Shown: positions 3,000 to 20,451 of the stretch, piece by piece
How positions within the stretch are numbered: the first letter of the stretch is position 1
Layout: every line of letters starts with the position of its first letter
Origin: Crocosphaera subtropica ATCC 51142
GTDB taxonomy: Bacteria; Cyanobacteriota; Cyanobacteriia; Cyanobacteriales; Microcystaceae
Reading direction: 5' to 3'
NCBI RefSeq assembly: GCF_000017845.1
Contig: NC_010547.1
Span: forward strand, 270,001-302,000
Length of the DNA: 32,000 nucleotides
Translations under genes and position numbers: made by a program
Notes under the pieces: generated by a model
Told to the model about the DNA's origin: nothing
Seen by the model: the letters and a program-made list of their open reading frames with translations, nothing else
Databases searched by the model: none

Positions 3000-4229
3000 T
3001 TACGCACAGATTGTTTCCAAAACCCTTAGAGTTTCTTCTTCATGAAGAGTTAAATGGAGTGGATTCATCCTTCTCAATGATTCCAGTAGTTGCTTAATTC
3101 TTCTGGTTATATTTCCCCCTAATTTCGGTTGATTCCCCGACAACAACAGCGCCGGATTATGCAACCAGCGATCGCCTATGTGGACATACACCATCGTCGT
3201 TTTCGGGTCGGTGTGTCCCAGTAGATCCTGCACTTGTTCTAAGGTTGCCCCTGCTCTCAAGGCCAGTGTTGCTGCCGTGTGTCTCAACGAGTGTGCGCTT
3301 AACTTCCTGGGTTTGGGTTTATACTTTGAGAGGTTATGCGCTTTTTTGCTCTTGCCTGTGGTGGGCAAGTTTTTCTTTTCTTGGCTCCCAGTCAGCTTTT
3401 TGGGGTTTTGAGGACGAGGTAATTCTTTCAGCCCGATCGCATTCAGATATTTGTCGACAATGCGGCGAAAGGAGCGCCGGCTCAAGGGTTTCCACATCTT
3501 TTTATTGTTACGGGCCACAGAGAGGAACAACGGGGTTGATTCGGTTATGAGTTCCCCTGCTTTTCTTCTGGCTCGCAAGTAACACCGTAATAACTTGGCT
3601 AAATCGGGGGTTAACGGCACGACCCTTGTATGGCGTTTGGATGATACTCTTAATCCCACGTTTTTCCCATCTCTGACAATATTCCCGACACAAACGCGAT
3701 GTAAATCCGCCGTGCGAAAGCCTTGCAAGACCATTGCTGAGACCAAGAAGCGATCGCGTAAAGCATGGACGGTATTCTCAGCAGGAAGGCTATCGAGTAA
3801 CCGAGACATTTCCTCACTTTGGAGGTAATTGATGGTGGCGGCTGGATCTTTAACTTCTGTGGGGGGGCGAAGGCGAAGGGCTGGATTGAAGCTGATGTAT
3901 TCGTTTTCAAGGAGAGCGTCGTAAAAGCGACGAAGGACAGCGAGTTTCAATGAAATCGTAGCGGTTTGATATTGTTGCTCTTTGACTAACCAACGACGGA
4001 AGCGTTTGAGGTTGGCGAAAGTAGCTTCAATGGGATTGAGGGTATTAGTTTGGCACCAGTGGACAAATTGCTTGAGGTGGCAAAGGTAGGTTCTTACGGT
4101 GTCGTCGGCTGCTCGTCCGTTCCCCACATCGGTGTTGAGAAAGTCATCGAAGAAGTTGAGGATTTGGGTATCTGAGATGAGGATGGTTTTGGCCGAGTGG
4201 GTAGAAACGAGGTTAGACATAGGAGCCAC
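3000..4229 (-). CDS. Tyrosine site-specific recombinase (phage-integrase family)
   Basis: It has an N-terminal core-binding (SAM-like) region and a C-terminal catalytic domain with LSAHSLRHTAATLALRAGATLEQVQDLLGHTDPKTTMVYVH (HxxR ... H ... Y). A Lys/Pro-rich insert precedes box II. Confidence 0.85.
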   Translation of the reverse strand: MAPMSNLVSTHSAKTILISDTQILNFFDDFLNTDVGNGRAADDTVRTYLCHLKQFVHWCQTNTLNPIEATFANLKRFRRWLVKEQQYQTATISLKLAVLRRFYDALLENEYISFNPALRLRPPTEVKDPAATINYLQSEEMSRLLDSLPAENTVHALRDRFLVSAMVLQGFRTADLHRVCVGNIVRDGKNVGLRVSSKRHTRVVPLTPDLAKLLRCYLRARRKAGELITESTPLFLSVARNNKKMWKPLSRRSFRRIVDKYLNAIGLKELPRPQNPKKLTGSQEKKNLPTTGKSKKAHNLSKYKPKPRKLSAHSLRHTAATLALRAGATLEQVQDLLGHTDPKTTMVYVHIGDRWLHNPALLLSGNQPKLGGNITRRIKQLLESLRRMNPLHLTLHEEETLRVLETICA

Positions 4230-5747: not shown

Positions 5748-7664
5748 CTAAATTATTATAGTCCAAATTGTTACTTCTTCTAAAGTTTTAACTTTAATTT
5801 GATAATTGTTAATCGTCCACTCTAATGCTGTTATTTCTTGAGGAGTATAAGAATAAGTTATCTGAATTTCAAACATTTTATTTGCATCTTTTTCAGAACT
5901 CTGAAAAAATATTTTTACTTTTTCACTAGCTTCAGAATTATCAGCAATGTCTAGAACTTCATCAATCATTTTATGTAAAAACTTTAATAATAATTTGGAA
6001 TCGAGGGAAATTGACCAGTTATCTAATTGAAAATAACATTGAGTCTTTGAGTCCCAATCATAGAGATCGTAAAAAATTTGGCGAAGATTTCCGACAACAA
6101 TTTCTGGAATTAGTTGGTCAAGGGTTCTCTGACTTTTTGTAACATTTAAACCTTCGAGATCAAAACTATCAATATCCATTCCAGGAAGACTTCGACTCAA
6201 GAAAGCCCCAAACATTTTAATTTTTTCATCCGCTTCATTGATAGTTACTTGTTGAACCAAACTTAAAGAATTTTCCAGCTTCCTATAAACAGATTGCTCT
6301 TCAATTAGGGTTTCCATTTCAAGCAATACAGCTTTAATTAGTTTTTGATAAAGACTTTTAAAGTTAATAAGAAATTGGTAATCATCAAGGAGATTTCTAG
6401 CAATATGACTACAAAAAGCAGCAAATTCCTGATAAATTTTGGCCTTTTCAACTCTCGTTTCTAACTTGGCATTAATTTGAGAAATTTTCTCTAATTGCTC
6501 TTTTTGATTTTTCTCGTATTGAACCACAGAAAGAATCAAACAATTACTCAAAAAAGCTACCAGACAAGGGACAATAGGCAACCACCAGCCTTTGAGAAAT
6601 AACCCATAGCTAGAAAAAATAAGAAGGAAACTAACGCCTGAAACCAATAACGTTCTAGCTATTAGGGGAAACCGAAGCATACTGGCTCCTATTAATCCCC
6701 ACAGTATAATCACTAAAGAAATCCAAGGTTCTTGAACAAATTTTATAATTGGCCTTCCGTTTAACGTGGCACTGAGAATAAAACTAGCAGTTTGTGCGTG
6801 AGATGCTACCCCAGGTAAGGATGTCGGGGAACCTTCTATATTGGAGTTGAATGGTAGAAAGACTCGATCTTTCAAACTTGGTGCTGTGGCACCGATAAGA
6901 ACGATTTTTCTTCTAACTTGAGATAATTTAAAATCTTGTCTTAAAACTTCAGCAAAAGAATATTCTTGAAATTGAGATTTACGCCAGTTGGGGACAATTT
7001 GGTATCCTCTATCATCGACACGAACATAAGGACTGTGCCATTGATGAACAGGATCAAAGGTTATGCCATTGAGTCGAAGCCATTTACTATTATTATCGGG
7101 GAGAATTCCCTTATCGGCTAAATATTCTCTAGCAACTGCCCATCCGAGGTTGGGAATCGGAGGGTCAGTTTGAGCATAGAGAAAACTTCGTCTTTTTACC
7201 CCATCACCATCTAAGATTGCCGATACATCAGCAATTTTAGACTCCTGAATCGGTGGGGGTGGTAAAGGCGCAAAATTAGGATCTTCTTGACTTCCGGTTA
7301 CTTTAGCTGAGGCAAAGACTTGATCATATTTTTGGAAAATAGCCAGAAACTCCTCACGCCCTGGAGGTTCTGGAATATCTCTGAGAAAATCAATTCCCAC
7401 TACAGCAGGTTCTGCTTTTTGTAGTTTCTCAACTACTTGAGCCAGCATTTTATCCGAGGGTCGAATACGCTTAAAATGGTAAATGTCACTTTCTTGCCAC
7501 CCCACAATAACAATCCTAGGATCTGGGGCATCCCGACGTTTTAATTGAAAAAAAATATCCATTGTTGAAAGTTCGGCTGATTGCCATCCTCCCATTAGTC
7601 GGATTAAACACACAACAAGAGGTAAGATTGAAATTTTAAGACTTTGACGAAAACGTTTATTCAC
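5748..7664 (-). CDS. CHASE2-domain membrane sensor with a degenerate histidine-kinase-like C-terminus
   Basis: The CHASE2 signature is LMGGWQSAELSTMDIFFQLKRRDAPDPRIVIVGWQESDI ... IVLIGATAPSLKDRVFLPF. About three TM helices and a coiled coil follow. An H-box-like EFAAFCSHIARNLL is present, but there are no G1/G2 ATP-lid motifs. The start is ambiguous: the track ATG at 7733 overlaps DUF928 by 77 nt, whereas the GTG at 7664 gives an 8-nt overlap. Confidence 0.8.
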   Translation of the reverse strand: MNKRFRQSLKISILPLVVCLIRLMGGWQSAELSTMDIFFQLKRRDAPDPRIVIVGWQESDIYHFKRIRPSDKMLAQVVEKLQKAEPAVVGIDFLRDIPEPPGREEFLAIFQKYDQVFASAKVTGSQEDPNFAPLPPPPIQESKIADVSAILDGDGVKRRSFLYAQTDPPIPNLGWAVAREYLADKGILPDNNSKWLRLNGITFDPVHQWHSPYVRVDDRGYQIVPNWRKSQFQEYSFAEVLRQDFKLSQVRRKIVLIGATAPSLKDRVFLPFNSNIEGSPTSLPGVASHAQTASFILSATLNGRPIIKFVQEPWISLVIILWGLIGASMLRFPLIARTLLVSGVSFLLIFSSYGLFLKGWWLPIVPCLVAFLSNCLILSVVQYEKNQKEQLEKISQINAKLETRVEKAKIYQEFAAFCSHIARNLLDDYQFLINFKSLYQKLIKAVLLEMETLIEEQSVYRKLENSLSLVQQVTINEADEKIKMFGAFLSRSLPGMDIDSFDLEGLNVTKSQRTLDQLIPEIVVGNLRQIFYDLYDWDSKTQCYFQLDNWSISLDSKLLLKFLHKMIDEVLDIADNSEASEKVKIFFQSSEKDANKMFEIQITYSYTPQEITALEWTINNYQIKVKTLEEVTIWTIII

Positions 7665-8220
7665 TAGGGAATGGCGATATAGTAATAAAATTATTATCAG
7701 AAAGTTTTTGATAATTTTGTACCCAATGATCATAAGGGGTTTTTTCAGAACCAGAAACGATAATATTTTGTTTTAACCTCACTCCTTTGAGAGATGAACC
7801 CTGGCACGGAATAGAAGCTCTAATGATATATTCCTGGTTTCTATTTAGTTCAGGAAGTTGATAATTTAAACGCCCTTCAGTTAAGATAATACGTTGATTT
7901 TGTCCAATAATTGTTCTGTTGTCTTTGGTGGTTATGGTAATTTTTATCTTCTGTGGTTTTCTCAATTGAGCAACTTCAAGAACAACAAAAGGTTGTTCTT
8001 GACTGGTATTTATATTATCTGTTTGGGCAACCCCGATCAAGGACAATTGTGGTAAATAATTGGGGCAACCTCTTGAAGTTTCCCCTTGGGTATTTTCAGG
8101 AGATTCTTCTTTTGGCGGTTCCCAAGCTGTTGCTTTAGGCATATTCAAGTTGCTCAAACTTAGAAATACTATCAGGTTGATAAAAAAGTTTTTCGATAAA
8201 ATCAAACCCATAAATATCAT
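7657..8220 (-). CDS. DUF928-like exported protein
   Basis: It has a signal-peptide-like N-terminus. PPKEESPENTQGETSRGC follows, then a beta-rich body ending in a second Cys (IRASIPCQG). This matches my memory of the DUF928 pattern (PP..G.P....G.sRG.C). Confidence 0.65.
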   Translation of the reverse strand: MIFMGLILSKNFFINLIVFLSLSNLNMPKATAWEPPKEESPENTQGETSRGCPNYLPQLSLIGVAQTDNINTSQEQPFVVLEVAQLRKPQKIKITITTKDNRTIIGQNQRIILTEGRLNYQLPELNRNQEYIIRASIPCQGSSLKGVRLKQNIIVSGSEKTPYDHWVQNYQKLSDNNFITISPFPSE

Positions 8221-10273
8221 GTATTTATTTCTACTTTCAAAATCCTGTATTTTCTTGATCTACTTACTTAGCTTAGGATATTTTACCCCGTTTGTTACCG
8301 CTTATCCTTCAATTTCTGAAAATTTACGTCAATTTTACCTATACATTAACAATGGAGATTATAACCAAGCTGCAAAAACCATAGAAGAACTATCCGATTC
8401 ATCTATGAAATTAGCTCTGAGTGCAGACCTAGCTTACTATCAAGGGCAATATGATGAGGCAATTGCCTTATATGAAGAAGCTAGTCAGACTCTTGATTCT
8501 CAGAAAATTCTCTTAAATTGGAGCAAAGCATTATATCAACGGGGACGTTTTTACGAAAATTTAAACGTTGACGAGGGTAACTTTGATTTAATTCAACTGA
8601 GTGAAACCGATTTTTCTCTAGCGTCATCTAAAATAGCTCAATTACTAAACAACAATTCTTCTGATTACCTAGAAGCTCGGTTACTGGCAGCTAAACTTAA
8701 TAAAGATGATTTAACAGTAGACTTGGAAGCGATAGAGAAAGATATTTTATCCTTAGAAAACTCCAACAGAAAAATTCGTTTTTTACTAGACTTAGCTGAG
8801 ATATCTCCTAAATCTAAGATATGGAAACAAGCTTTTTCTCTGGCTATCCAATTAGATAATTTACAATATCAATCTTTAGCCCAAGGTAATTTGGGAGAGA
8901 ATTATTTACAAAAGAATGCTCCACAAGCTGCATTAAAGTCGGCATGGTTGGCTCAATTAGCAGCTTCGAGAATCCAGGATTGGCAATCTTTGATTCGATG
9001 GCATTATTTGGCGGCGAGATCCTTTCAGCAGTTAGAAGACCAGGATTCCGCTATTGCTCAATATAAATTAGCTGTTGCCACTATTAAAAAATTGAGACAA
9101 CAGTTAAGTGGGAACCCGATTTCTCCTCACTTATATTTCGATGTGGTTAAACCTGTTCTTAATGATTATTTACAGTTGCTTCTTTCTCTTTCTTCTCCTC
9201 CCTTAGAAGAAGTTATTTCTCTTCAGCAGTTAGATCAGTTAGGGCAATTAGATAATTATTTCCAAGTTATTTGTCAATTCGACCTTGACACTCCTCAGAA
9301 ATTAATAGAAAAGACAGAAGCTCGCATTTTTTTTGTTGAGCTTGATGAGTCTATTCATGCTATTTTGCAACTGTCCGACTCCTTACGACATTATCCATTA
9401 GCCATTGAGCCAGAGTTGTTACGATCGCAGGTCAGAGAGTGGAGAGTTGAGCTAATGAACGGAGATTTTGATTCGTCTTTTGAATTGAGTTCGATTCTGT
9501 ATAGAACAATTTTAGCTCCCTTAATGCCTATCTTAAAAGCTAATGACATTGAACATTTACAGTTAATCTCCAATGGCGTTCTCAGAACCATTCCAATAGC
9601 TGCCTTAAACGATGGGGAAAAATATTTAATAGAACATTTTGCCCTGAGTTATAGTTTAGGTCTTCGTAACAGAGTGTCTCCTTCGCTACAAAGAGATTTT
9701 TTACCCTTGATTGCCGGACTGACTCGCTCAACTCCTAATTTTCCAAACAAACTTGAATTTGCTCAAAGAGAAGCTCGTCAAGTGCAAACTTTACTAGGAG
9801 GAACCATTTTACTCAATGATGGGTTTTCTGCCGAGTCCCTGAAAACGCAATTACAAGATTCTCGTTACCAAATATTGCATTTAGCTACCCATGCTAGTTT
9901 CTCTTTTGTCCGTGAGCGAGCCTTTATTGAAACGGGAACTCAGACGATTTCTTTGAACCAGTTTGAGTCAATTCTCAAACAACGACGTTCTCCTCTACAA
10001 TTACTGGTTTTAAGTGCTTGTCAGACTGCCATAGGCGATCGCTATTCAGCGTTAGGTTTATTAGGAGTAGGATTAAGGAATAATATTGACGTTGTTGTAG
10101 GGTCATTCTGGGAAGTGGGGGATAGCAACACTTCTCAACAGATGAAGCAGTTTTATAAATTTTGGCAACAAGGATCTTCTTTGCCTGAAGCATTACGCCA
10201 AGTCCAATTAGGGTTAATTCGAGAAGGAGAACTTCCTGCTGATTGGGCTGGTTTTATTGTTGCTTTTAATTAG
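8219..10273 (+). CDS. TPR-repeat / CHAT-domain (caspase-like) protease, probably exported
   Basis: The hydrophobic N-terminus MYLFLLSKSCIFLIYLLSLGYF is followed by about 400 aa of TPR-like helical repeats. The C-terminal CHAT domain has a His/Cys dyad context: ILHLATHASF (His codon 9890-9892) and LLVLSACQTA (Cys codon 10019-10021). The track start at 8060 lies inside the DUF928 gene, so I use the ATG at 8219. Confidence 0.85.
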   Translation: MYLFLLSKSCIFLIYLLSLGYFTPFVTAYPSISENLRQFYLYINNGDYNQAAKTIEELSDSSMKLALSADLAYYQGQYDEAIALYEEASQTLDSQKILLNWSKALYQRGRFYENLNVDEGNFDLIQLSETDFSLASSKIAQLLNNNSSDYLEARLLAAKLNKDDLTVDLEAIEKDILSLENSNRKIRFLLDLAEISPKSKIWKQAFSLAIQLDNLQYQSLAQGNLGENYLQKNAPQAALKSAWLAQLAASRIQDWQSLIRWHYLAARSFQQLEDQDSAIAQYKLAVATIKKLRQQLSGNPISPHLYFDVVKPVLNDYLQLLLSLSSPPLEEVISLQQLDQLGQLDNYFQVICQFDLDTPQKLIEKTEARIFFVELDESIHAILQLSDSLRHYPLAIEPELLRSQVREWRVELMNGDFDSSFELSSILYRTILAPLMPILKANDIEHLQLISNGVLRTIPIAALNDGEKYLIEHFALSYSLGLRNRVSPSLQRDFLPLIAGLTRSTPNFPNKLEFAQREARQVQTLLGGTILLNDGFSAESLKTQLQDSRYQILHLATHASFSFVRERAFIETGTQTISLNQFESILKQRRSPLQLLVLSACQTAIGDRYSALGLLGVGLRNNIDVVVGSFWEVGDSNTSQQMKQFYKFWQQGSSLPEALRQVQLGLIREGELPADWAGFIVAFN

Positions 10274-10311
10274 GAATGGTAAAATTTCTCTTTAGGTGTG
10301 AAGAGTTGGTT

Positions 10312-11010
10312 ATGGATTTAGATTGTAAGTTAAAAAACTGGGAAAATTTTTGTCAGCATCAATTAGGTGATTGGTACGGGACTTGGAGGTTTTATTCAGG
10401 TAACGGAGAGTTTCTTAAATCTTTTCGATGTATTAGAAGTTTTCGCTCTTCTAATGATGAGCAAGTTCAACATCAAAACCATTATTTCTACGAAGATGGT
10501 CAAGAAAAAACGGAAACTTTTGGTCCTTATATTAAACCTGAAATGAGAGGAACTTACTTGAAAAATAGTTTCTCTTGGGGAGTCAAACATCTGAGGGATA
10601 ATTTCTTTTTTGAAACCGGCTTTAGCCATGAAAATAAACGAGCCAGTTTGGTAGCTATCTATGAAAATAGAGTATTGAGACAAGTGATCGCTATTGTGGA
10701 AAATAAGGATGAATTTAAGGAGTCTCTCCCCTTGGAAATGCCTTCAAAATTAGAAGGGAAAAGTCAATCTATCACTACTGATTTAGTTATATCAGAAGAA
10801 AAAAGGCAGGTTTGGCATCCTTTATCTGATAATCTGACTTTATCTTTTCAGGGTAATCTTTTTTTGACTTGTCCTCAAGAACTCACCTCTGATTCCTTTA
10901 ACTTAACCGTAGATTGGTTAGCGATGCCTAGTTTACTCTATCGAGGCATCCGTTCGTTTGATGCTTCCCAATTTAAGGAATTTACTTTACAAACTTTTAC
11001 GACTTTTTAA
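10312..11010 (+). CDS. DUF3598-like protein
   Basis: The N-terminus KLKNWENFCQHQLGDWYGTWRFYSGNGEF ... VQHQNHYFYEDGQ matches the remembered DUF3598 opening (W..F....G.W.GsF ... H.N.Y). There is no signal peptide. An alternative ATG lies at 10276. Confidence 0.55.
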   Translation: MDLDCKLKNWENFCQHQLGDWYGTWRFYSGNGEFLKSFRCIRSFRSSNDEQVQHQNHYFYEDGQEKTETFGPYIKPEMRGTYLKNSFSWGVKHLRDNFFFETGFSHENKRASLVAIYENRVLRQVIAIVENKDEFKESLPLEMPSKLEGKSQSITTDLVISEEKRQVWHPLSDNLTLSFQGNLFLTCPQELTSDSFNLTVDWLAMPSLLYRGIRSFDASQFKEFTLQTFTTF

Positions 11011-11013
11011 GGA

Positions 11014-13722
11014 ATGAAACAAGCTAGAAACGCTTTTCTTATAACAGTTAGTATCTTAATCTCTTCTACTTCTATAGAAGCTCAAATCGTTCCTGATGCT
11101 TCTTTATCTAATCCTTCCACGGTGTCTTCTCAAGATAAACTGATGATTATTGAAGGTGGCACACAGCAAGGAAATAATTTATTCCATAGTTTTGAGCAAT
11201 TTTCAGTGCCAAGTGGCTTTGAGGTGTTGTTTAATAATCGATCTGCCATTCAAAATATTTTTACTAGGGTAACAGGGGCGAATTTATCATTAATCGATGG
11301 ATTAATTAGAGCTAATGGAACAGCCAATTTATTTTTGATTAATCCCAATGGCATTCAATTGGGAACGAATGCCTCTTTAGATGTTGGTGGTTCTTTTATT
11401 ATTAGTACCGCCAATAGTATTAGATTTGCAGATGGCTATGAATTTAGTGCCAGTAACCCTGATTCATTATTAAGTGTCAGTGTCCCTATCGGTTTAACGT
11501 TGAACAATCCTGGTTCAATTAAAATGCGAGGCATCGGACATAATTTAGGTGGGCTAACGAATCCTTTTGTTCCTGTGATCAAAGATCCTGTTCCCTCCGG
11601 CTTAGCTACAAAACCAGGGAATACTTTAGCTTTAATTGGAGGTGAAGTTTATTTAGATGGGGGTGTTCTCAGCGCCGACTCTGGGCAAATTGAAGTGGGT
11701 GGTGTCGCTAGTGGCTTTGTGAAAATCGAACAGAGCGCACAGGGGTGGACTTTTAATTACCAAGCTATTTCTAATTACAATGACATACAAGTCGCGAATA
11801 AATCTTTATTAGATGCTAGTGGGGCTAGTCGTGGATCTATCCAAGTACAAGGTAAAAATATTAGTCTCAAAGATGGCTCGATGTTTTTGATCCAAAATCA
11901 AGGGGAGCAATCTTCTAGTCTGATTAAGATCGTGGCTTCGGAAGCGTTATCCTTAAGTGGAGAAATTGATAATAGATTTTCTTCGACTATTATTAGTGAA
12001 ACCTTCAGTTCAGGAGACGGACCAGATATTACCATTCGAGCCAAGGATATAACGATTCGAGACGGTGGCACTATCAGACCTAAAAGCTATTCTCAAGGTC
12101 GCAGTGGGGATCTCAATATTACCGCAGCCAACTCTCTCAATGTTATTGGAGTAGCCCCTCGTAGCCCCCGTGCAGCCAGTAGTGCTAATACTAGCAATAC
12201 TAATCTAGGCAGTTCAGGGAACACTATAATTATTGCACCTCAATTGAATCTTCGAGATGCGGGATTTGTTGGTAGTGTCTCCTTAGGCCGAGGGGATGCT
12301 GGAACAGTTAAAGTAGAGAGCGATACCATTCATATCCAGGGTGGTAGTTCTGTCCAATCAGAAAGTTCTATCTCTGCAACCAGTTTTTCTCAAGGCAATG
12401 CAGGAACTATTGAGATTAAAACCAAACGTCTGTTTTTAGAAGATGATGCTAATGTTAACGCTGCGACTCTGGGATTTGGGGCCGCCGGAACTATTGAGAT
12501 TCAAGCTGACGAATTAATTGAAATCAAGCCGAATAGTGGCATCATTGCTTCGGTTGTTAATTCCACTGTGGGGGGAGAGCAAGATATTTTCGGTACTCCT
12601 ATAGAATCTACAGGCTCTTCAGGTAATATTTCAATTGAGACTCAATTTCTGAAAATTACCGGAGATAATAGTCAAATTGGTGTCTCTAACCAAGGGTTAG
12701 AAGAAAATGCAGGGCTTCTTACCATTAATGCTGAGTCCATTATTCTCGAAAATCGCGCTAGGCTTAATGCTGATGCTCAGTTTGGGGTCGGAGGGAATAT
12801 TTTTGTTAACACTAAAGATTTTTTAATTACAGAAAAAAGCCGTGTATCTGCTACCTCTGTGGGGGTAGGAAATGGAGGCAATATTCTTATCGACGCTGAC
12901 AATTTGTCTATGTTTGAAGATGGGATTATTACGGCTGAAACCATTGAAGGTTCTGGGGGTAATATCAATTTAGAAGGTGGCACTGTTTTACTACAGTTTG
13001 GGGAAATAAAAGCTTCAACCAAAACAGGAAGTGGTGGAAATATTAGCACCAATTTACAACAATTAAGGGTCGAAAATGATAGTCTCATTGAAGCTTCTGT
13101 AGAAGATTCAGGAATAGGAGGAACTCTAAATATTGTTGCGAATGTCATTTCCCTCAATAATGACAGCCAAATCAAGGCCACCAGTCAATCTGGGTCTGGA
13201 GGGAATATTAATTTTCAAACCTCTACCTTAAAGCTATTAGATAATAGTCAGGTGACTACATCCGCTCAAGATGGGGATGGCGGTAATATTAATTTCACCA
13301 GTGACTTTTTATTCCTGTTAGATAATACTAAAGTTATTGCTAATGCCTTTACAGGAAATGGAGGCAATATAACCATTACCGCCCAAGAAATTTTTAGATC
13401 CCCTGAAAATATCATTTCCGCTTCTTCTGAATTAGGTATCGATGGAACGGTGAGAATTAATACCACTCCTTTTGAAGTGAACCCTCAACCTTTAAAAATT
13501 TCTTTAAGGGAGTCTGAAGACGAAACTAATCCCTTTGAAGTTTGTAATCAAGTCAATACCCGTTTTTCAGTACAAGGCTCTGGAGGCTCATTACCTTCTC
13601 CTTCCTCTCAACTAGAAACTTATACCGTTGAGGATTTAATTCCTTACGGCCAAGCAGTTAGTCTTCAACAAAATGATCAAGGAGACTGGGAGTTATTAAG
13701 CTGTAATGACTTGAAACAGTAG
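11014..13722 (+). CDS. Filamentous-haemagglutinin-like exoprotein (TpsA) with an N-terminal TPS secretion domain
   Basis: A signal peptide is followed by a TPS domain: GNNLFHSFEQFSV, NIFTRVTG, ANLFLINPNGI (NPNG at 11341-11352). The body is a long beta-helix with recurring G(S/N/D)GGNI(N/S/T) units at roughly nt 12780-13390. The C-terminus contains a Cys pair. Confidence 0.9.
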   Translation: MKQARNAFLITVSILISSTSIEAQIVPDASLSNPSTVSSQDKLMIIEGGTQQGNNLFHSFEQFSVPSGFEVLFNNRSAIQNIFTRVTGANLSLIDGLIRANGTANLFLINPNGIQLGTNASLDVGGSFIISTANSIRFADGYEFSASNPDSLLSVSVPIGLTLNNPGSIKMRGIGHNLGGLTNPFVPVIKDPVPSGLATKPGNTLALIGGEVYLDGGVLSADSGQIEVGGVASGFVKIEQSAQGWTFNYQAISNYNDIQVANKSLLDASGASRGSIQVQGKNISLKDGSMFLIQNQGEQSSSLIKIVASEALSLSGEIDNRFSSTIISETFSSGDGPDITIRAKDITIRDGGTIRPKSYSQGRSGDLNITAANSLNVIGVAPRSPRAASSANTSNTNLGSSGNTIIIAPQLNLRDAGFVGSVSLGRGDAGTVKVESDTIHIQGGSSVQSESSISATSFSQGNAGTIEIKTKRLFLEDDANVNAATLGFGAAGTIEIQADELIEIKPNSGIIASVVNSTVGGEQDIFGTPIESTGSSGNISIETQFLKITGDNSQIGVSNQGLEENAGLLTINAESIILENRARLNADAQFGVGGNIFVNTKDFLITEKSRVSATSVGVGNGGNILIDADNLSMFEDGIITAETIEGSGGNINLEGGTVLLQFGEIKASTKTGSGGNISTNLQQLRVENDSLIEASVEDSGIGGTLNIVANVISLNNDSQIKATSQSGSGGNINFQTSTLKLLDNSQVTTSAQDGDGGNINFTSDFLFLLDNTKVIANAFTGNGGNITITAQEIFRSPENIISASSELGIDGTVRINTTPFEVNPQPLKISLRESEDETNPFEVCNQVNTRFSVQGSGGSLPSPSSQLETYTVEDLIPYGQAVSLQQNDQGDWELLSCNDLKQ

Positions 13723-13779
13723 CTTTGCTCCGACATCCTTATCCAATAGCGTTGGGGTGGGACTTCTTGCCCCTCTCAG

Positions 13780-15090
13780 CTAAAATTTTAAGACTCCTTC
13801 GACAGAAAACGTTACTTCATTTAATTGATTAGTATCTGTCGGAGCAACAGCATTAAGCGGCGCACCTACATCTAATCCTACTCGTAGAGAATTCCACTCA
13901 AATCTTAGCCCAACTCCTGTGCTAACCAATGTTCTTGTGGGTAATATATCTTCTAATGATCCCCACACCTGACCATAATCAACGAATCCTAAAACTTGGA
14001 GTGCAGTAGATTCTTGTTGTAATAGAGAATATCTGAGTTCTAAGGTTCCAGCAATGCAATTATCATCGCTCACAAAGTTGGTTCCGTATCCTCGAACTGT
14101 ATTGCCAAAAATAAAAACGTTCCCATTTTTCCCTCCTAATGCACATCTTTCACCTCCAGGTTGCCGATGAGGGGATAAGTGAAGGGCAAATCGTCCGTAT
14201 AACTGTAAATGATCTGTAAGAGCTTTGATGACTTGCCCTTGAGCTTTCCAACTAAAAAAAGTGGGATCAATCTCTTCAGAGGAACCTCCTATGGAAAAAG
14301 TTGATGAGCCGAAAATAACTTGTCCAGGAATGATCTCAGAATATGTCGCTCCTATTCGCCCTACTGTAAGTTGGGGGTCTGAAAATAGTCGCCTGTTTAA
14401 TACTCTTCCCCTACTTTCTCTACGTTCGAGTTTGAAGTCTATGGTCAGGGAACGATTAGCAGTTTTTATCAAATACTGATTATAACCAACAGAGGCGGTA
14501 AAAGCTTCATTTTTTACGTTGAAGGGTTCTAAATTTCCCTCTACGATCTCTGAATCGCTTTCTTGATAAGCAAATTCTAAACTGCTATCATTCGGAGCAA
14601 ATTCATGTCGGTACACAGCTAAAAACCTTTGTAGCCCCTCTGTTTCTTTATATAAGAATCTGACACTGTCTCCATGCCAAATGTTTTGATTTAATAGTTC
14701 AACTTCAACCCCATCATCTCCAATTAGAGGATTTTCAAAATTATTAATCGTCGTCCTTATCTGCCATGAAGGCGATTCTAGGACGTTTACCGTCAGGATA
14801 CTTTGTCCTATTCGACCTGTTTGTGATAGATTTGCATCTATTTCCGATAATTTCGGATTTTGAGACAGAATTTTTAGTCTCTCTAAAAGAATATTTTGAT
14901 TAAAAGGCGGACCGAGAAACGGCTTGATTCTAGCTGCTACATATTGTTTGAGGTTTTCAGTCCCCTTGATTTCCAGTTGGACTTCTCCTTCAATCGCCTT
15001 ATAATAAACAACCCCTTGAGTAATCTTTTGAGATTCTAACAAGACTATTGAGTTAACATATCCTGCATCAACATAGGCTTGAGTTAACAA
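13780..15090 (-). CDS. ShlB/FhaC/HecB-family TpsB outer-membrane transporter, 5'-truncated (probable pseudogene)
   Basis: The ORF begins at a TTG inside POTRA1 (LTQAYVDAGYVNSIVLLESQKITQGVVYYKAIEGEV) and continues through POTRA2 and the beta-barrel, ending in F. The signal peptide, N-terminal helix and most of POTRA1 are missing. An in-frame stop lies at 15124-15126, and no frame is open in 15125-15275. Confidence 0.75.
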   Translation of the reverse strand: MLTQAYVDAGYVNSIVLLESQKITQGVVYYKAIEGEVQLEIKGTENLKQYVAARIKPFLGPPFNQNILLERLKILSQNPKLSEIDANLSQTGRIGQSILTVNVLESPSWQIRTTINNFENPLIGDDGVEVELLNQNIWHGDSVRFLYKETEGLQRFLAVYRHEFAPNDSSLEFAYQESDSEIVEGNLEPFNVKNEAFTASVGYNQYLIKTANRSLTIDFKLERRESRGRVLNRRLFSDPQLTVGRIGATYSEIIPGQVIFGSSTFSIGGSSEEIDPTFFSWKAQGQVIKALTDHLQLYGRFALHLSPHRQPGGERCALGGKNGNVFIFGNTVRGYGTNFVSDDNCIAGTLELRYSLLQQESTALQVLGFVDYGQVWGSLEDILPTRTLVSTGVGLRFEWNSLRVGLDVGAPLNAVAPTDTNQLNEVTFSVEGVLKF

Positions 15091-15133
15091 TTCTTGGATA
15101 GATACAGTATGTATGACACCTCTTTAGTCAATT

Positions 15134-15166
15134 TTCTCGAAATATTGATAAGTTATTCTCGAAATA
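15134..15166 (+). promoter_or_regulatory. Direct 11-nt repeat upstream of the 15330 gene
   Basis: ttctcgaaata occurs at 15134-15144 and again at 15156-15166, giving 22-nt periodicity. It lies in the non-coding junction next to the truncated tpsB. Confidence 0.25.
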
Positions 15167-15329
15167 AAACTAAAGATATCTTCAATTAAGCTCTCGCTCT
15201 AAGTAAGTTAAATTCGTTTTTTTCAGGAGAGTTGGGAGATAAGTTACTCAATAACCCCTGAAACTCTCAAAAAAATTGACTAAGTGTAAAGAAATTCACA
15301 AGAATATACCAATATCACCCGTTTTTAAC

Positions 15330-16514
15330 ATGGTTGCTACTGTTTCCTCCCCAACAACAAGTGCCTTTCCTAAGTTTACCCCTCCAACTGCCATAGTAGA
15401 GCGATCGCTTTGGGACATCGTTAGTCAAGCTGCTGCGTTCTCTCAGCAAAAAGAGATGCTAACGAAAGAACAATGGCACGACTTGACCTTGCAATACAAG
15501 CGCACTTTTGTAAACAATATGCTTAAGTTGTGGCGATGGTGGCAAGACTTATCCCAGGAATTACGCGATCGCTTATTGTCTATCCCGTGCAAGTATGTGC
15601 CGTTCAATGGCATCATGCAAGTGGTGAAAATTCCGACGAATTGTTTAGAGACGTTCCTAAGAACTTGCGAGGAACGAATGACTGAATATCTCGATCCCAA
15701 TTCATGGTCAAAGTTAGCTCAAATGTTTATTCCGAAACCGAAAAAACGTCGTTTAAGCTTGGGTGAAGTAGCTACTGAAGAACATTGGGTGCTGGTAGCT
15801 AAAAAATTCCAGCTAGATCGCGATGCTTTAACTCGTTTGAAAGGTCTTGTTAGTGAGCAACCAACAACCGATGAAATTATCCAGGTTTGTTCACAAGAAG
15901 GTTTCGATATTTCTAAACTACTATCCAAAAAAGATAGAGAAGATTGGAAATCTCAAGTCTCACAACAGGAATTAAAACAGGAAAACGCTCGTATTTCTCA
16001 AAATTATCAACTGTTACAAGAAGAGAATAGTAGCTTACTTGAGGCCAATTATCGACTTGAACAACAAGTAAAAGTTTTACAAAAACGCTTGAATACCACT
16101 AATTTAGACATAGCGGTGGTGAAAACTGATGTTAAGCAACAGTCTTTTTCTAATAATTCTAATAAACAAGAATCCAAGGAAGTCAAAAAAGTTTCTGAAC
16201 CTTCTTTAGTTGAAGAGCAAAAAGATAACATATCTACTGACATCGCCACTCAGCACAAAGAGCAAAGCCGAGAATTAATAGAATATGATGATGAAAGTCA
16301 AGTCAATAATGACGAAATTTTAGTAACGGATGAAAAGAGGGAAACTCAATATAATGGGGAGATAGCAATTCCTATCAAGTCATCTACACTGACAAGTGTT
16401 GAACAACCAACAGTCTCTAATCATCACCCCATTGATTTAGTTAACAAGAATTCTAAAAAATCTTCACAAAGAACTAAAAATAAAGGATTCGGACAATACA
16501 CTAAACCAAAATAA
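15330..16514 (+). CDS. Hypothetical protein with a central coiled coil and a low-complexity acidic/basic tail
   Basis: This is a long ORF containing two HIP1 sites. It has a heptad-like region (QQELKQENARISQNYQLLQEENSSLLEANYRLEQQVKVLQKRL). I recognise no family. I prefer the ATG at 15330 over the TTG at 15276. Confidence 0.5.
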   Translation: MVATVSSPTTSAFPKFTPPTAIVERSLWDIVSQAAAFSQQKEMLTKEQWHDLTLQYKRTFVNNMLKLWRWWQDLSQELRDRLLSIPCKYVPFNGIMQVVKIPTNCLETFLRTCEERMTEYLDPNSWSKLAQMFIPKPKKRRLSLGEVATEEHWVLVAKKFQLDRDALTRLKGLVSEQPTTDEIIQVCSQEGFDISKLLSKKDREDWKSQVSQQELKQENARISQNYQLLQEENSSLLEANYRLEQQVKVLQKRLNTTNLDIAVVKTDVKQQSFSNNSNKQESKEVKKVSEPSLVEEQKDNISTDIATQHKEQSRELIEYDDESQVNNDEILVTDEKRETQYNGEIAIPIKSSTLTSVEQPTVSNHHPIDLVNKNSKKSSQRTKNKGFGQYTKPK

Positions 16515-16534
16515 TTCACGATTAGATAAATAAA

Positions 16535-16819
16535 ATGTCAATTAAAAACATAAATCCTTTAAATAGAATCTCGGTTTTAGGATTCGGATTGGTCATGTTT
16601 TCATTAGGAGTCTGGTTGCCTTCAGATATTCCGAGAAAAATTCAACAAGAAAGGGCTAAAATTATCTTTTGGCTCGGAACTGCCACTATCATTATCGGTG
16701 GAGGAATCGATTATTATTACCGTCGACAAAATGAAAAATTACTCTCAAAAGTTCAAGAAAATTTAGAATTTTGGAAATCTCTAGAACAAGAAGTTTACCA
16801 TAATCACAATCAAAACTAA
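16535..16819 (+). CDS. Small membrane protein (2 predicted TM helices)
   Basis: The hydrophobic segments are VLGFGLVMFSLGVWL and IIFWLGTATIIIGGGI. It follows the previous gene closely on the same strand. Confidence 0.45.
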   Translation: MSIKNINPLNRISVLGFGLVMFSLGVWLPSDIPRKIQQERAKIIFWLGTATIIIGGGIDYYYRRQNEKLLSKVQENLEFWKSLEQEVYHNHNQN

Positions 16820-16862
16820 TTTTTTCGTTCAGCTAGTTTGTTTACACACATTTATTAAAACT

Positions 16863-17090
16863 ATGGATAATCAAGATAATGAACTAAAAGTGACTTCCCG
16901 ATTTTCTGGCGAAGTAGCAGAAAATCTTAGAGAACTTAAAGAAATAGGAAATTTTCAATCTCTTAATGCCGCAGTACAACATATAGTAGGAACTTATGTT
17001 TCGTCAGTAGTGAAAGGAATAAAAAGTTCTCAACAAAATGTAGAACTTAGTATTGATAGTTATTTTTTGCATGGAGGTGGCAAAAATTGA
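16863..17090 (+). CDS. Hypothetical small protein, possibly ribbon-helix-helix
   Basis: LKVTSRFSGEVAENLRELKEIGNFQSLNAAVQHIV fits a strand-helix-helix pattern. This is a weak call. Confidence 0.35.
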   Translation: MDNQDNELKVTSRFSGEVAENLRELKEIGNFQSLNAAVQHIVGTYVSSVVKGIKSSQQNVELSIDSYFLHGGGKN

Positions 17091-17299
17091 GACTTTTACT
17101 ATTTTTTCCCTTTAATTTCATCTTTGTTTTTTCGTTGATTGTAGGACTTCATTTTTCTAAGAACTACTCAGATCAGATAAAAGCAAAAGTTCAGTTTATG
17201 AGTCTACATCCTGATTTGATTACTCAAATTAATAATCAAGATCCTCATAGATGTAATTGTCCTATGTGTAGTCTTAAGACTCAAAACATGGTAAGTTAA
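17087..17299 (+). CDS. Hypothetical small membrane protein
   Basis: The TTG start overlaps the previous stop. It has an N-terminal TM segment (LLLFFPFNFIFVFSLIVGL) and a C-terminal CxCPxC. Confidence 0.3.
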   Translation: MRLLLFFPFNFIFVFSLIVGLHFSKNYSDQIKAKVQFMSLHPDLITQINNQDPHRCNCPMCSLKTQNMVS

Positions 17300-17337
17300 T
17301 CTTAGGTGAATGAAATTCTTAAACCCTTTTTCTTTTT

Positions 17338-17370
17338 GCTCCTGTTGTTCAACGGGAGCTTTAATTTTTA
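17338..17370 (+). terminator. Rho-independent terminator
   Basis: gctcctg (17338-17344) pairs with cgggagc (17353-17359), including one G-U pair, around an 8-nt loop. The tail tttaattttta follows. Confidence 0.5.
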
Positions 17371-17398
17371 TGTTTAATTTGAGTTTAAGTACCTACTT

Positions 17399-17433
17399 AA
17401 TACCCTATTTTTTGATATAATAAATAGGGTATT
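17399..17433 (+). promoter_or_regulatory. 12-bp perfect inverted repeat enclosing a TATAAT hexamer, a candidate operator and promoter
   Basis: aataccctattt (17399-17410) pairs with aaatagggtatt (17422-17433). The loop contains tataat (17416-17421), 29 nt before the ATG at 17450. Confidence 0.4.
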
Positions 17434-17449
17434 TTTCTTATTTAAAATT

Positions 17450-17737
17450 ATGTTTGAAAAGAAAATAGAACAACTTTCAAAATCAGATATTACCTATATT
17501 TCTAAGCAAATTAATAAGCTTAAAGAATATAAAAATAATACCGAAGCTACTCACAACTGTTTGTGGCGCATTGCCAGTAACGCTGAACTTTTCTCTTTTG
17601 ATGAATTAGATCAAAAGGGGATATTAACCTCTAGGCAAATAGAGATAACATGGGCTTTTATTCGATATTTTGAGCGTCGTAATCAAAAAAGTTTCCTAGG
17701 ATATATTTGTCGGTTAGTTAAATTTATAATTAAGTAA
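17450..17737 (+). CDS. Hypothetical protein
   Basis: The 95-aa ORF has an ATG start downstream of the candidate promoter. I recognise no family. Confidence 0.45.
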   Translation: MFEKKIEQLSKSDITYISKQINKLKEYKNNTEATHNCLWRIASNAELFSFDELDQKGILTSRQIEITWAFIRYFERRNQKSFLGYICRLVKFIIK

Positions 17738-17833
17738 AAATAATGCTACAAAAGTATAATAAAATAAAAATAGTTAGTTTAACAATTGATTAATTACTAA
17801 GTTATTAAACTAAATTTAATTGAGGAAACTCTT

Positions 17834-18124
17834 ATGTTCAAAGAAGGATGTGTCGTACCATTGTTATTTCTGATATGTAGCTTTGGTTGGTTGATTCTGA
17901 GAGATATTGCTAAAGACGAAACTATAGTTTTCGTCAAGTTTTCGCAGCATCCAGATCAAACTTTTTCCTTGTCTGAGTTATCTTTAGAAAAATTAGAAGA
18001 AGAAGATTTGCTTAAAATAAAATGTGGTGATCGATTTCTCAGTATAAGCTCAAAAAATGTGGACAAAATAACAGGTAACTTCGAGTTTTCTAAAGACGAG
18101 GTAATTTACTGTGAGCGTTTATAA
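17834..18124 (+). CDS. Hypothetical protein with an N-terminal TM anchor
   Basis: A GAGGAA lies 7 nt upstream of the ATG. The N-terminus VVPLLFLICSFGWLIL is hydrophobic. Confidence 0.45.
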   Translation: MFKEGCVVPLLFLICSFGWLILRDIAKDETIVFVKFSQHPDQTFSLSELSLEKLEEEDLLKIKCGDRFLSISSKNVDKITGNFEFSKDEVIYCERL

Positions 18125-18186
18125 GTTGAATACCAAAAATAAAAATCACAAGGCTTTTTGATCCTTCCTCTTACCCTAGATTTACC

Positions 18187-18462
18187 ATGATTAAACTCAA
18201 ATACTATTTAATAATAGAATTAGCAAACAGAGCTAAACAAGCAGTATTCGGAGATACTTCTAATCTTAACGCAACTCAACAAGAAAAAATTGATTTACTT
18301 GAGTCAATCAGAAATTTTTTAACAGAAGATAAATATTTTAGTAAAGAATATTCACTAAAAAAAAGAATACTTAATTTTGTTTTTTTTGCTATTACTATTA
18401 GCACTCTTGGAGTATTTTACTATTTTTTTATTCTTTCACCGATCTATTATTACTATACCTAA
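18187..18462 (+). CDS. Hypothetical protein with a C-terminal TM segment
   Basis: The 91-aa ORF has an ATG start. Its 3' end overlaps the next ORF in another frame. Confidence 0.4.
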   Translation: MIKLKYYLIIELANRAKQAVFGDTSNLNATQQEKIDLLESIRNFLTEDKYFSKEYSLKKRILNFVFFAITISTLGVFYYFFILSPIYYYYT

Positions 18463-18682
18463 AAAATGTTCTTGGGATTTAATAGCATTAACTAAATCTA
18501 AAGATAGGTTAATAGATACAGTAAATATGATATCTATTATTATTATGGTTTTTTTTCTTTTTAATCTGATCAGTTCTTTAAAACTAAGAAAAGAAAAGTC
18601 TATTTTACAAATTCTTAAACTCCCTGGAATATCATTTATATTTTTGATGTTTCTCAAAGGAATAATTTATCTTATTTATTAA
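18377..18682 (+). CDS. Hypothetical multi-TM protein, possibly the frameshifted continuation of the previous ORF
   Basis: It has a TTG start inside a T-rich tract and overlaps 18187..18462 by 86 nt. The segments are hydrophobic. Confidence 0.3.
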   Translation: MFFLLLLLALLEYFTIFLFFHRSIITIPKKCSWDLIALTKSKDRLIDTVNMISIIIMVFFLFNLISSLKLRKEKSILQILKLPGISFIFLMFLKGIIYLIY

Positions 18683-18729
18683 GAAAGTAGTTTATTGAGA
18701 TTTTAATAATACTTAATACGAAAATAACT

Positions 18730-19251
18730 ATGGTTAAATTTAATTACTTTCAATCACAAAAGATATTAGATTCTGATTATTCGCCAATGACCAAAGAATT
18801 AAACCGACTTCTTAAAAACATTGATAATATCTTTTCCTGGGAGTTAGAAAATCGTCCCTTAACCGCTGCTAGAAATATCAACGAGCTAATCAAAGCAGTA
18901 ATAGAAAAATCTCCGACTACACCAGCAAAACTAGAATATAGAAAAGACGAGTTCAGATTAACAAAGTTAGGCATAATTAAGTTTTCTTTAGGAGAAGAGT
19001 TAGAATTTAGATACTGCAGGAAAGAGAGAATCCGTAGTCTAACTCTCCGAAAATTGCTAAGATATTTGCTATGGTTGCTAATTTTTGGAAAAGCTAAAGA
19101 TCAATATTTAGCGAAATTCACTGCTTGGGCTTCTGTTATTAATTTCTTACAACATTATTCAGATTTTTTCGAGTTTAGTGATGGTGCTAAAATAAATGAA
19201 TATGAAACTTTAATCATTAATTGGAGATATTATCATGAAGACCGAAATTAA
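18730..19251 (+). CDS. Hypothetical protein
   Basis: The 173-aa ORF has an ATG start. I recognise no family. Confidence 0.5.
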   Translation: MVKFNYFQSQKILDSDYSPMTKELNRLLKNIDNIFSWELENRPLTAARNINELIKAVIEKSPTTPAKLEYRKDEFRLTKLGIIKFSLGEELEFRYCRKERIRSLTLRKLLRYLLWLLIFGKAKDQYLAKFTAWASVINFLQHYSDFFEFSDGAKINEYETLIINWRYYHEDRN

Positions 19252-20056: not shown

Positions 20057-20067
20057 ATTACATTTAT

Positions 20068-20106
20068 TTAGCTTCTTCGCCAAGAAGCTAAGTATTGGTT
20101 TTTTGT
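20068..20106 (+). terminator. Rho-independent terminator
   Basis: This is a perfect 10-bp stem: ttagcttctt (20068-20077) pairs with aagaagctaa (20082-20091) around the loop cgcc. A T-rich tail (ggttttttgtgttt) follows, 12 nt after the stop at 20056. Confidence 0.75.
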
Positions 20107-20277
20107 GTTTGTTATTTATACCATTACTTTATTTTTCGTTCTTTATCTTAATAAAGAAAATTACTATATTTATGATACTCTAACTTTATTTCTATTTAAC
20201 ATTTTCTCAGCTACATTTATTAATTTTGTTCACCGCGTACTTATAATTTTTTCAGATAATATCTTGTAATTAAATCC

Positions 20278-20451
20278 ATGAAAAATTCAAAATCAATGAT
20301 TAAATTTTTTATCAAAGTAAGGAATATAGCAGGAGCAATATTCTTTATTTTTGCTACTGTGTGTAGTCTTTTCTCTCTAATTATGGCAATACTATATATT
20401 CTAGGATTTGATTTTGATACTAGACCTCTATGTTCACAACTTTCTCCTTAA
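20278..20451 (+). CDS. Possible 57-aa membrane peptide (below the ORF-track cutoff)
   Basis: I translated it by hand from the ATG at 20278: MKNSKSMIKFFIKVRNIAGAIFFIFATVCSLFSLIMAILYILGFDFDTRPLCSQLSP, with a stop at 20449-20451. Confidence 0.3.
   Translation: MKNSKSMIKFFIKVRNIAGAIFFIFATVCSLFSLIMAILYILGFDFDTRPLCSQLSP

Follow-up and report, generated by a model that had tools for sequence, protein, structure and literature searches.

A conserved gene module of a two-partner secretion exoprotein, an exported CHAT protease, a DUF928-type protein and a CHASE2 receptor in cyanobacteria

In the two-partner secretion (TPS) exoproteins (TpsA) HMW1 and HxuA, a small disulfide-closed domain at the C-terminus lies in the periplasm and acts as a tether (PMC5422565). 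Another TpsA, the adhesin CdrA, is set free by LapG, a periplasmic cysteine protease that cleaves the C-terminal tail of CdrA in the periplasm (PMC5422565). LapG cleavage is under the control of c-di-GMP (cyclic di-GMP) via the inner-membrane receptor LapD (PMC3032545). According to a review, the genes of proteases that mature TpsA proteins are not part of TPS operons (PMC5422565). Here we describe a gene cluster in a 32,000-nt stretch of DNA from Crocosphaera subtropica ATCC 51142 (NC_010547.1, positions 270,001 to 302,000; the whole stretch is referred to as the window), in which a tpsA gene stands beside genes for an exported protease with a CHAT domain and a TPR-like region (TPR-CHAT), a small exported relative of DUF928 and a receptor with a CHASE2 domain. 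The record, which holds the locus tag cce_5042, is presumably the linear chromosome of this strain. Linkage of the four core families, TpsA, TPR-CHAT with a signal peptide, DUF928 and CHASE2, is far beyond chance. In the literature we found no published description of the module, of its locus tags, of a function of DUF928, or of CHAT proteins together with TPS systems, in line with the original prediction for this DNA, which named no experimentally defined role; only metacaspase-CHASE2 fusions and one DUF928-CHASE2 adjacency beside WD40 genes are noted there. The families are known and the logic has precedent; the combination was not found described.

The window copy belongs to a clade of the module that is borne by mobile elements, namely integrase-flanked islands and conjugative plasmids, and relatives of the module likewise adjoin integrases or sit on conjugative plasmids. 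Its gene order and orientation were found again in genomes of Crocosphaera and of cyanobacterium SU3, and three Gloeothece plasmids carry CHASE2(-), the small gene(-), CHAT(+), a slot gene, TpsA(+) and TpsB(-) at 32-36% protein identity. All six genes are also present on a 17-kb metagenomic contig (L007), where TpsB has 556 aa and an integrase adjoins. A set of 19 genome loci anchored on CHAT was obtained from a narrowed CHAT alignment; within the fetched DNA, TpsA was present at 12 of them, DUF928 plus CHASE2 at 8, and at least one of the two at 15, and the remaining four loci are the most distant or the shortest. An independent set anchored on DUF928 (n = 7) recovered the same families, with CHASE2 as the next gene in six cases and TpsA plus TPR-CHAT within 10 kb in six. 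We roughly estimate that only a few percent of randomly chosen genes would have a TPS gene within ±10 kb. Both sets therefore bear out the co-occurrence across cyanobacteria that had been stated in the original prediction. In Oscillatoria PCC 10802, TpsA, CHAT, DUF928 and a CHASE2 kinase follow each other on a single strand with gaps of 8-75 nt. The association of CHAT with TpsA reaches Alpha- and Gammaproteobacteria, and three metagenome-assembled genomes (MAGs) of Caulobacterales show the order CHAT>TpsA>TpsB. The six genes of the window do not, however, form a fixed unit as had been proposed: the position held by DUF3598 is variable, most Nostocales loci showed no TpsB, and the TpsB of the window is truncated.

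Two kinds of gene fusion were detected among these families. Single proteins built as TPS-(repeat region)-TPR-CHAT are encoded in a Pseudanabaenaceae MAG (L023, 1339 aa) and a Cellvibrionaceae MAG (P0260, 1449 aa), and a third such protein has 1181 aa (P0283). In the Pseudanabaenaceae protein TPR-CHAT takes the place of the C-terminal anchor of TpsA, directly after its first Cys. In addition, CHAT-CHASE2 fusions were found, in which CHAT is N-terminal and leaderless and therefore cytoplasmic. In Nostoc sp. CHAB 5844 (L037, 11732-20265), an 822-aa CHAT-CHASE2 fusion adjoins a TpsA>TPR-CHAT pair, and a DUF928 gene and a ParE/antitoxin pair lie near it; the output of this receptor is CHAT.

The TPR-CHAT gene of the window (8219..10273, plus strand; ORF (open reading frame) 8060/8219-10273; Pfam CHAT E 1e-40) encodes 684 aa from the ATG at 8219 and begins with a signal peptide (aa 1-29, ...VTA/YP). 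This signal peptide is conserved in 9/9 aligned homologues and is present in nearly all linked CHAT ORFs, and a hydrophobic N-terminus was seen in 96 of the 128 closest full-length CHAT cluster representatives. The protein is thus predicted to be exported. Its CHAT domain (nt 9491-10264) contains the dyad LHLATH...LSACQTA, with His554 (nt 9878-9880) and Cys601 (nt 10019-10021) invariant in nine aligned homologues, and we regard it as a predicted cysteine protease with a caspase fold and a His/Cys dyad. The family is large; the window protein matches 33,673 cluster representatives at E<=1e-3. The hydrophobic leader claimed for this protein thus held up, whereas the long TPR array claimed with it is visible with the family profile only: aa 30-330 approximately form a helical TPR-like region in which single Pfam TPR matches of the window protein stay below threshold, and a PDB search with the family profile retrieves TPR proteins at E 1e-19 to 1e-10. 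The same search gave no sequence-level match to solved CHAT structures.

TpsA (902 aa; 11014..13722, plus strand; Pfam TPS E 1e-62; TIGR01901 E 3e-23) has a signal peptide, a TPS domain at aa 23-278 (nt 11080-11847) with NPNGI at aa 110 and, following the TPS domain, Gly/Asn-rich repeats that presumably form a beta-helix. Its only two cysteines, Cys844 and Cys897, are 54 residues apart and bracket a C-terminal domain (nt 13543-13704). Every complete TpsA of the related loci that is not a fusion has a corresponding pair, 45-151 and 2-15 residues from the C-terminus, and in the cyanobacterial TpsAs of these loci (800-1850 aa) it makes up nearly all cysteines. Conservation of the last 110 aa equals or exceeds that of the remaining protein, with 67-91% identity to close relatives. 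From these sequence features we infer a putative periplasmic anchor which, as in HMW1 and HxuA, would be closed by a disulfide. Contact-dependent inhibition (CdiA/CdiB/CdiI) was considered for this exoprotein and rejected, as TpsA contains no VENN-type pre-toxin motif, its C-terminus is conserved and not polymorphic, and no small gene follows tpsA.

The small gene (7657..8220, minus strand; likely start 8211) is a 187-aa ORF with a signal peptide, seen as a hydrophobic leader, and the N-terminal motif WEPPKEESPENTQGETSRGC. It had been predicted as a DUF928 protein transcribed with a CHASE2 sensor; the CHASE2 assignment and the tight coupling of the two genes were confirmed, but the small ORF gave no DUF928 match in Pfam or NCBIfam even at E<=10, and its relation to DUF928 emerges by profile homology only. 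The Pfam DUF928 model (PF06051) has a gathering threshold of 26 bits, and the Gloeothece orthologues of the small protein, with 22.5 and 17 bits, fall below this cut-off. An initial database search returned just seven close relatives, none of them annotated. A profile-profile comparison (hhalign) of this short clade with bona fide DUF928 proteins, by contrast, yielded 97% probability and E 4e-11, with a match of 138 columns that spans the N-terminal two thirds, and an iterated hidden Markov model started from the window protein and run over the fetched loci reaches proteins that score as DUF928 at E 1e-57 to 1e-65. Common to the short clade and DUF928 are a signal peptide, the motif [FWY]xPP..P..[ST].G..SR..C, a beta domain and Y......C, and the residues PP, R, C, T, P, Y and C are invariant in the aligned set. 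The C-terminal helical half of DUF928 (GIWYD...W..LL.SVGL..IA.EP) is missing from the whole short clade, and the hhalign match ends at the second Cys. Judged by these profiles, the small protein is a shortened relative of DUF928. An AlphaFold2 (AF2) model, with confidence values (pLDDT) of 70-85, predicts a beta-sandwich of seven strands bracketed by Cys52 and Cys139, with the motif region disordered ahead of it. Foldseek retrieved generic Ig/Fn3 beta-sandwich folds for this model, none below E 1e-3, and a PDB sequence search for DUF928 gave no match. A proteinase inhibitor fold, suggested by the top Foldseek hit (3isy), was rejected because this hit is not significant (E 2.7e-3).

The CHASE2 receptor gene (5748..7733, minus strand; Pfam CHASE2 E 1e-51) encodes 638 aa from its annotated GTG at 7664, and the product is 100% identical to P0123 (cce_5042). 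Hydrophobic segments at aa 31-50 and aa 335-406 place the CHASE2 domain (aa 39-350, nt 6684-7619) between an N-terminal transmembrane helix and a C-terminal transmembrane bundle, that is, on the presumed periplasmic side. The AF2 model has pLDDT values above 90 for aa 40-420 and of 30-57 for aa 430-661, the multiple sequence alignment for this C-terminus being shallow. The cytoplasmic end of about 240 aa (nt 5751-6476) is of no recognised type: Pfam gave no match within aa 350-661, and the region is poorly conserved within the window's clade. We considered a degenerate histidine kinase, as an H-box-like sequence (FAAFCSHIARNL) is present and Foldseek on the low-confidence model found weak matches to histidine-kinase DHp-CA domains (LvrB/RetS; E 8e-3). 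This was rejected, since the His is not kept in the clade and hhalign of the clade's C-terminus with the HisKA-HATPase part of related CHASE2 kinases produced no alignment. With the cytoplasmic end variable or unrecognised, the conserved parts of the system are the periplasmic ones.

CHASE2 proteins encoded beside DUF928 in other loci have recognisable outputs, namely HisKA-HATPase-REC (L016, L018, L019, L031, L033), HisKA-HATPase without REC (L032), PAS-cyclase (L034, L035), GGDEF (L036) and, as mentioned, CHAT (L037). On three Nostocales chromosomes (L031-L033) a REC-HisKA/HATPase gene follows the CHASE2 kinase gene with a 4-nt overlap, and in Scytonema a gene for an OmpR-type regulator lies a few kb beyond this pair. 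The additional kinase and regulator genes of the Nostocales suggest a multi-step phosphorelay, which is missing from the window's clade.

All six genes of the window that had been predicted as adjacent are present as ORFs, and Pfam confirms five of them. They are indeed tightly packed. The stop codon of the small ORF and the annotated CHASE2 start overlap by 8 nt (GTGAATAA), and the CHASE2 gene may be translationally coupled to the DUF928-type gene; only 2 nt separate CHAT from DUF3598 and 3 nt DUF3598 from TpsA. The DUF928-type gene (-) and the CHAT gene (+) are arranged head-to-head, and only 0-8 bp lie between their start codons (ATCATG; 8211-8221). The same arrangement was found in L007 (7754-7763). 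Crocosphaera has spacings of 10-28 bp and Gloeothece (L001) of 27-57 bp, which gives 0-57 bp across the mobile clade, so that both promoters must lie inside the coding sequence of the neighbouring gene. Scans for promoters and terminators were uninformative in the AT-rich DNA of the window (37 promoter-like sites versus 27 expected). TPS genes are usually laid out as a co-directional tpsB-tpsA operon. In the window, tpsA and tpsB are convergent and no operon, with a gap of 57 nt (13722-13780); they are convergent throughout the clade, and in Gloeothece their 3' ends overlap (L001 15313-15336). Of the two-partner secretion pair that had been predicted, the TpsA half with its leader, TPS domain and NPNGI motif is thus intact, while its partner is truncated and read towards it.

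The model that best accounts for these observations, to which we assign a probability of about 45%, is that a periplasmic CHAT protease cuts the anchor of TpsA and that the DUF928-type protein and CHASE2 couple this event to a cytoplasmic output. The four core proteins would meet in the periplasm. TpsA, secreted by the two-partner route, would keep its disulfide-bracketed C-terminal domain in the periplasm as an anchor; TPR-CHAT, exported by the Sec pathway, would cut this anchor or the tail, so that the surface protein is matured or released; and the small exported protein together with the CHASE2 domain at the inner membrane would sense or gate the cleavage. CHASE2 might then pass the event to the cytoplasm, through a hybrid histidine kinase, cyclase, GGDEF or CHAT domain in relatives and through the unrecognisable domain in the window. 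In the mobile clade this core is joined by tpsB, read convergently, and by a variable gene, which in the window is DUF3598. The proposal that CHAT processes TpsA and that CHASE2 and DUF928 form a sensing branch, already part of the original prediction, is strengthened by the TPS-TPR-CHAT fusions, the conserved Cys-bracketed anchor of TpsA and the precedent of CdrA, LapG and LapD.

Several points weigh against this model. In cyanobacteria a signal peptide cannot tell the periplasm from the thylakoid lumen. The motif G-R-G-G-L-P that follows the first anchor Cys in Nostocales is degenerate in the window's clade (GSGGSLP in the window, GQGGIP in Gloeothece), and therefore no conserved cleavage residue can be named. 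The precedent is also an imperfect one, as CHAT is unrelated to LapG and CHASE2 to LapD, and because relatives of the receptor carry catalytic outputs, outside-in signalling is more likely than the inside-out control exerted by LapD. Furthermore, the majority of Nostocales loci showed no TpsB within a distance of 10 kb, and the model does not account for the conserved head-to-head starts of the DUF928-type and CHAT genes, with no room for promoters outside coding sequence. Finally, DUF928 has an invariant Arg-x(1-4)-Cys right after its signal peptide and could equally well be the substrate of the protease.

This last point leads to the main rival explanation, in which TPR-CHAT acts on DUF928, or on the ectodomain of CHASE2, and not on TpsA. 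A cut after the invariant Arg near the N-terminus of DUF928 would create or destroy a ligand of CHASE2, and TpsA would be either a regulated output or an upstream 'antenna' by which the protease is activated. The arrangement of the genes agrees with this: DUF928 and CHAT are head-to-head across the mobile clade, and DUF928>CHASE2 is the tightest pair, with its 8-nt overlap in the window and its adjacency in six of the seven DUF928-anchored loci. The invariant PP...R...C of DUF928 lies in the N-terminal stretch that is predicted to be disordered, the CHASE2 partners bear kinase, cyclase and GGDEF signalling outputs, CHAT-CHASE2 and metacaspase-CHASE2 fusions represent a recurrent partnership of caspases with CHASE2, and the small protein has a proteinase inhibitor as its top, though non-significant, Foldseek match. 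However, the TPS-TPR-CHAT fusions are left unexplained, as are the loci with CHAT>TpsA>TpsB that lack DUF928 and CHASE2 (L004-L006, L017, L020, L021, L026-28), and in the CHAT-CHASE2 fusions CHAT is cytoplasmic and thus on the opposite side of the membrane. We consider this explanation unlikely.

The four core proteins could also form an extracytoplasmic proteolytic signalling pathway of the caspase type, which we regard as quite unlikely. Here the TpsA fibre on the surface would be a probe for contact or damage, the exported TPR-CHAT would cut its anchor, and the cleavage product, alone, together with DUF928 or via processing of DUF928, would be the ligand of CHASE2, which would feed kinase, cAMP/cGMP and c-di-GMP outputs; plasmids and islands would have spread the pathway among cyanobacteria. 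Its logic would resemble that of Spätzle and Toll.

The slot between CHAT and tpsA bears on a different kind of explanation. In the window it holds the gene of a 244-aa DUF3598 protein (10276..11010, plus strand; Pfam DUF3598_N E 5e-30), which has no signal peptide or hydrophobic N-terminus and a weak match to BFA1 (5yvf). Among the related loci, DUF3598 was found only in the window, L007 and L011. Elsewhere, the slot has other occupants: Gloeothece and one Crocosphaera locus have a ferritin-like gene of 225 aa on the opposite strand, another Crocosphaera locus has an unrelated 225-aa gene, and cyanobacterium SU3 has a gene of 599 aa. DUF3598 is thus a clade-specific occupant of a variable slot and stands outside the core of the module. 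Such hypervariability, together with the carriage of the clade by plasmids and integrase islands, would fit antagonism between bacteria, with TpsA and TpsB delivering or displaying an effector in the manner of polymorphic toxins, CHAT acting as toxin or processing enzyme and the slot gene serving as immunity or accessory cassette. CHAT does occupy the C-terminal 'toxin position' of the TPS-CHAT fusions, and polymorphic toxins are known to use caspase-like domains for processing or as toxins (PMC3482391). We nevertheless consider this explanation very unlikely: the C-terminus of TpsA is conserved and lacks a VENN-type motif, the stand-alone CHAT has a signal peptide of its own and is thus no passenger of TpsA, the slot genes have no signal peptides and are missing from Nostocales loci, and such systems offer no role for DUF928 and CHASE2.

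Still less probable is cell death triggered from the envelope, or defence against phages, in which CHASE2 and DUF928 would sense damage or phage and CHAT would execute suicide. CHAT and caspase effectors occur in many bacterial conflict systems, where caspase-CHASE2 architectures have been noted as well (PMC8195603), and the module lies on a mobile island. The protease, however, is predicted to be exported, away from cytoplasmic targets, the conserved core has no NTPase, nuclease or other component of conflict systems, and the tight link to TPS secretion would go unexplained. PADLOC matched zero families for the nine proteins tested, and no PADLOC defence model was matched; a role resembling programmed cell death, which the original prediction had offered as one possibility, thus found no support.

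The tpsB gene of the window (13780..15101, minus strand; ORF 13780-15090; ShlB/POTRA_2/Omp85 E 3e-15) is a 5'-truncated remnant. It encodes 436 aa as compared to 522-588 aa in relatives, aligns from residues 89-130 of full-length TpsBs, and enters the POTRA_2 profile at position 43. Of the signal peptide, two POTRA domains and 16-strand Omp85-type barrel of a full-length TpsB, the remnant retains part of POTRA2 and the ShlB/Omp85 barrel. It has lost POTRA1, the signal peptide and the helix at the N-terminus, and there is no hydrophobic N-terminus; no remnant of the 5' end was detected upstream in any frame. TpsB is intact in L001-3, L007 and L014. In blastn comparisons with the metagenomic relative L011, 84% DNA homology extends over 6867-15101, stops and resumes at 22613, and the N-terminal region of the L011 TpsB has no counterpart in the window. 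This indicates a rearrangement that put a 7.5-kb segment of low GC content (15102..22612, 27-38%) in place of the tpsB 5' end and, relative to L011, of about 2.5 kb of flanking DNA. An outer-membrane transporter that lacks signal peptide and POTRA1 cannot function. The window copy is therefore probably not secretion-competent alone, and export of its TpsA would probably require that a different TpsB stand in.

The GC content of the window drops to 27-32% at about 17-21 kb. Next to tpsB, the low-GC segment holds an ORF of 412 aa (15276-16514) that gave no match in Pfam, NCBIfam or PADLOC. A 27-nt direct repeat with 81% identity was found at 15098-15124 and 18512-18538; its first copy lies exactly at the tpsB breakpoint, where it may mark a past recombination or be present by chance. 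Further on in the same segment, an 18-nt unit (GGGGACTTTGATGCTCCT) is present in three to four tandem copies (20578-20647) inside an ORF at 20518-20895.

Other copies of the mobile clade show damage, too. In Crocosphaera chwakensis CCY0110, ISAs1-like transposase ORFs (5244-6301) disrupt a CHAT gene (L015 4285-7774), and a CHASE2 gene is split into two ORFs (L012 7493-9474), for which a draft sequencing error is possible. It is nevertheless highly improbable that the module is merely co-located island cargo without joint function, the whole cluster being a decaying relic in this strain, as the truncated tpsB, the disruption of CHAT by an insertion sequence and the split CHASE2 in C. chwakensis, and the poorly conserved cytoplasmic end of the receptor might suggest, since the linkage of the four families outlasts rearrangements, strand changes and phylum boundaries and yields gene fusions, and the five other genes of the window are full length compared to relatives at 46-85% identity.

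The module is flanked by a tyrosine integrase gene (3000..4229, minus strand; Pfam Phage_integrase E 4e-22). On this side the island is bordered by xseA, hicB and a GNAT gene, which end at about 2690, and on the far side by a DUF3854 gene (23243-26344). Within the window, no tRNA gene was found at the island and no convincing flanking repeats were found at its borders; near-identical plasmid DNA for the window was not found either. Further downstream, a gene of the RNB family (RNase II/R-like) is split into an N-terminal part (30221-30904, minus strand; RNB profile positions 9-184) and a C-terminal part (27413-28675, minus strand; RNB profile positions 204-324 plus a dsRNA-binding motif). The insert between them consists of a HEARO RNA (28700-28918; Rfam 156 bits) followed by an ORF with RRXRR and HNH domains (28943-30220), which we take to be an IscB-type RNA-guided nuclease with its omega-RNA.

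CHASE2 sensor domains are very common in bacteria and have no known ligand, DUF928 has no known function, and no substrate is known for thousands of CHAT proteins that carry a signal peptide. The gene neighbourhood described here ties all three to one substrate candidate, the Cys-bracketed anchor of the adjacent TpsA. If cleavage of this anchor is the function of the module, the principle of regulated proteolytic release of adhesins, known from LapG and LapD, would extend to an unrelated pair of protease and receptor. For cyanobacteria this would mean control over surface fibres, plausibly in aggregation, in the formation of colonies or mats, or in contact between cells that carry the same plasmid. 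As the window copy is decayed and probably crippled by the truncation of tpsB, and other copies of the mobile clade are damaged as well, intact copies elsewhere are better suited to experiments.

Among described systems, several resemble single parts of the module. Csx29 of the type III-E CRISPR 'Craspase' and HetF of Anabaena combine TPR with CHAT and a His/Cys dyad, an architecture that is also predicted for the protease of the module; in contrast to it, they act in the cytoplasm or at the cytoplasmic face of the membrane and have no signal peptide. For HetF, CHAT protease activity on a specific substrate has been shown experimentally (PMC9457339). The caspase- or metacaspase-CHASE2 and CHAT-CHASE2 fusion receptors of cyanobacteria show the same recurrent partnership of a caspase fold with CHASE2 (PMC2853523, PMC8195603), but in these fusions the protease is cytoplasmic, whereas the CHAT protein of the module is separate and predicted to be exported to the side of the membrane where CHASE2 is located. 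For the exoprotein, FhaB of Bordetella offers a parallel to the maturation proposed here, as its C-terminal prodomain is kept intracellular or periplasmic and is removed by SphB1 and periplasmic proteases (PMC5422565); the candidate protease of the module belongs to a different clan, and its gene adjoins tpsA or is fused to it. In HMW1/HMW1B and HxuA/HxuB of Haemophilus influenzae, a short disulfide-closed C-terminal domain tethers TpsA to TpsB (PMC5422565), and the Cys pair of the window TpsA likewise lies within the last 60 residues. Compared to these, the anchor of the module is longer (about 55-110 aa) and has a conserved motif of its own, its disulfide and topology are predicted from the protein sequence, and tpsB is convergent and, in the window, truncated.

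With respect to the predicted roles of its components, the module is most similar to CdrA/CdrB-LapG-LapD of P. aeruginosa and LapA-LapG-LapD of P. fluorescens, which likewise consist of an adhesin with a periplasmic end, a periplasmic cysteine protease and an inner-membrane receptor; CdrA, like the exoprotein of the module, is a TpsA. According to Pfam, the parts themselves differ, as LapG belongs to the BTLCP family (DUF920) and the module protease is a TPR-CHAT protein with a predicted caspase fold, and LapD is a HAMP-GGDEF-EAL protein, whose place would be taken by CHASE2 together with the DUF928-type protein. Cleavage is hypothetical in the module, in contrast to the Lap systems, and it is in the module that the genes are clustered, and in some cases fused, with tpsA.

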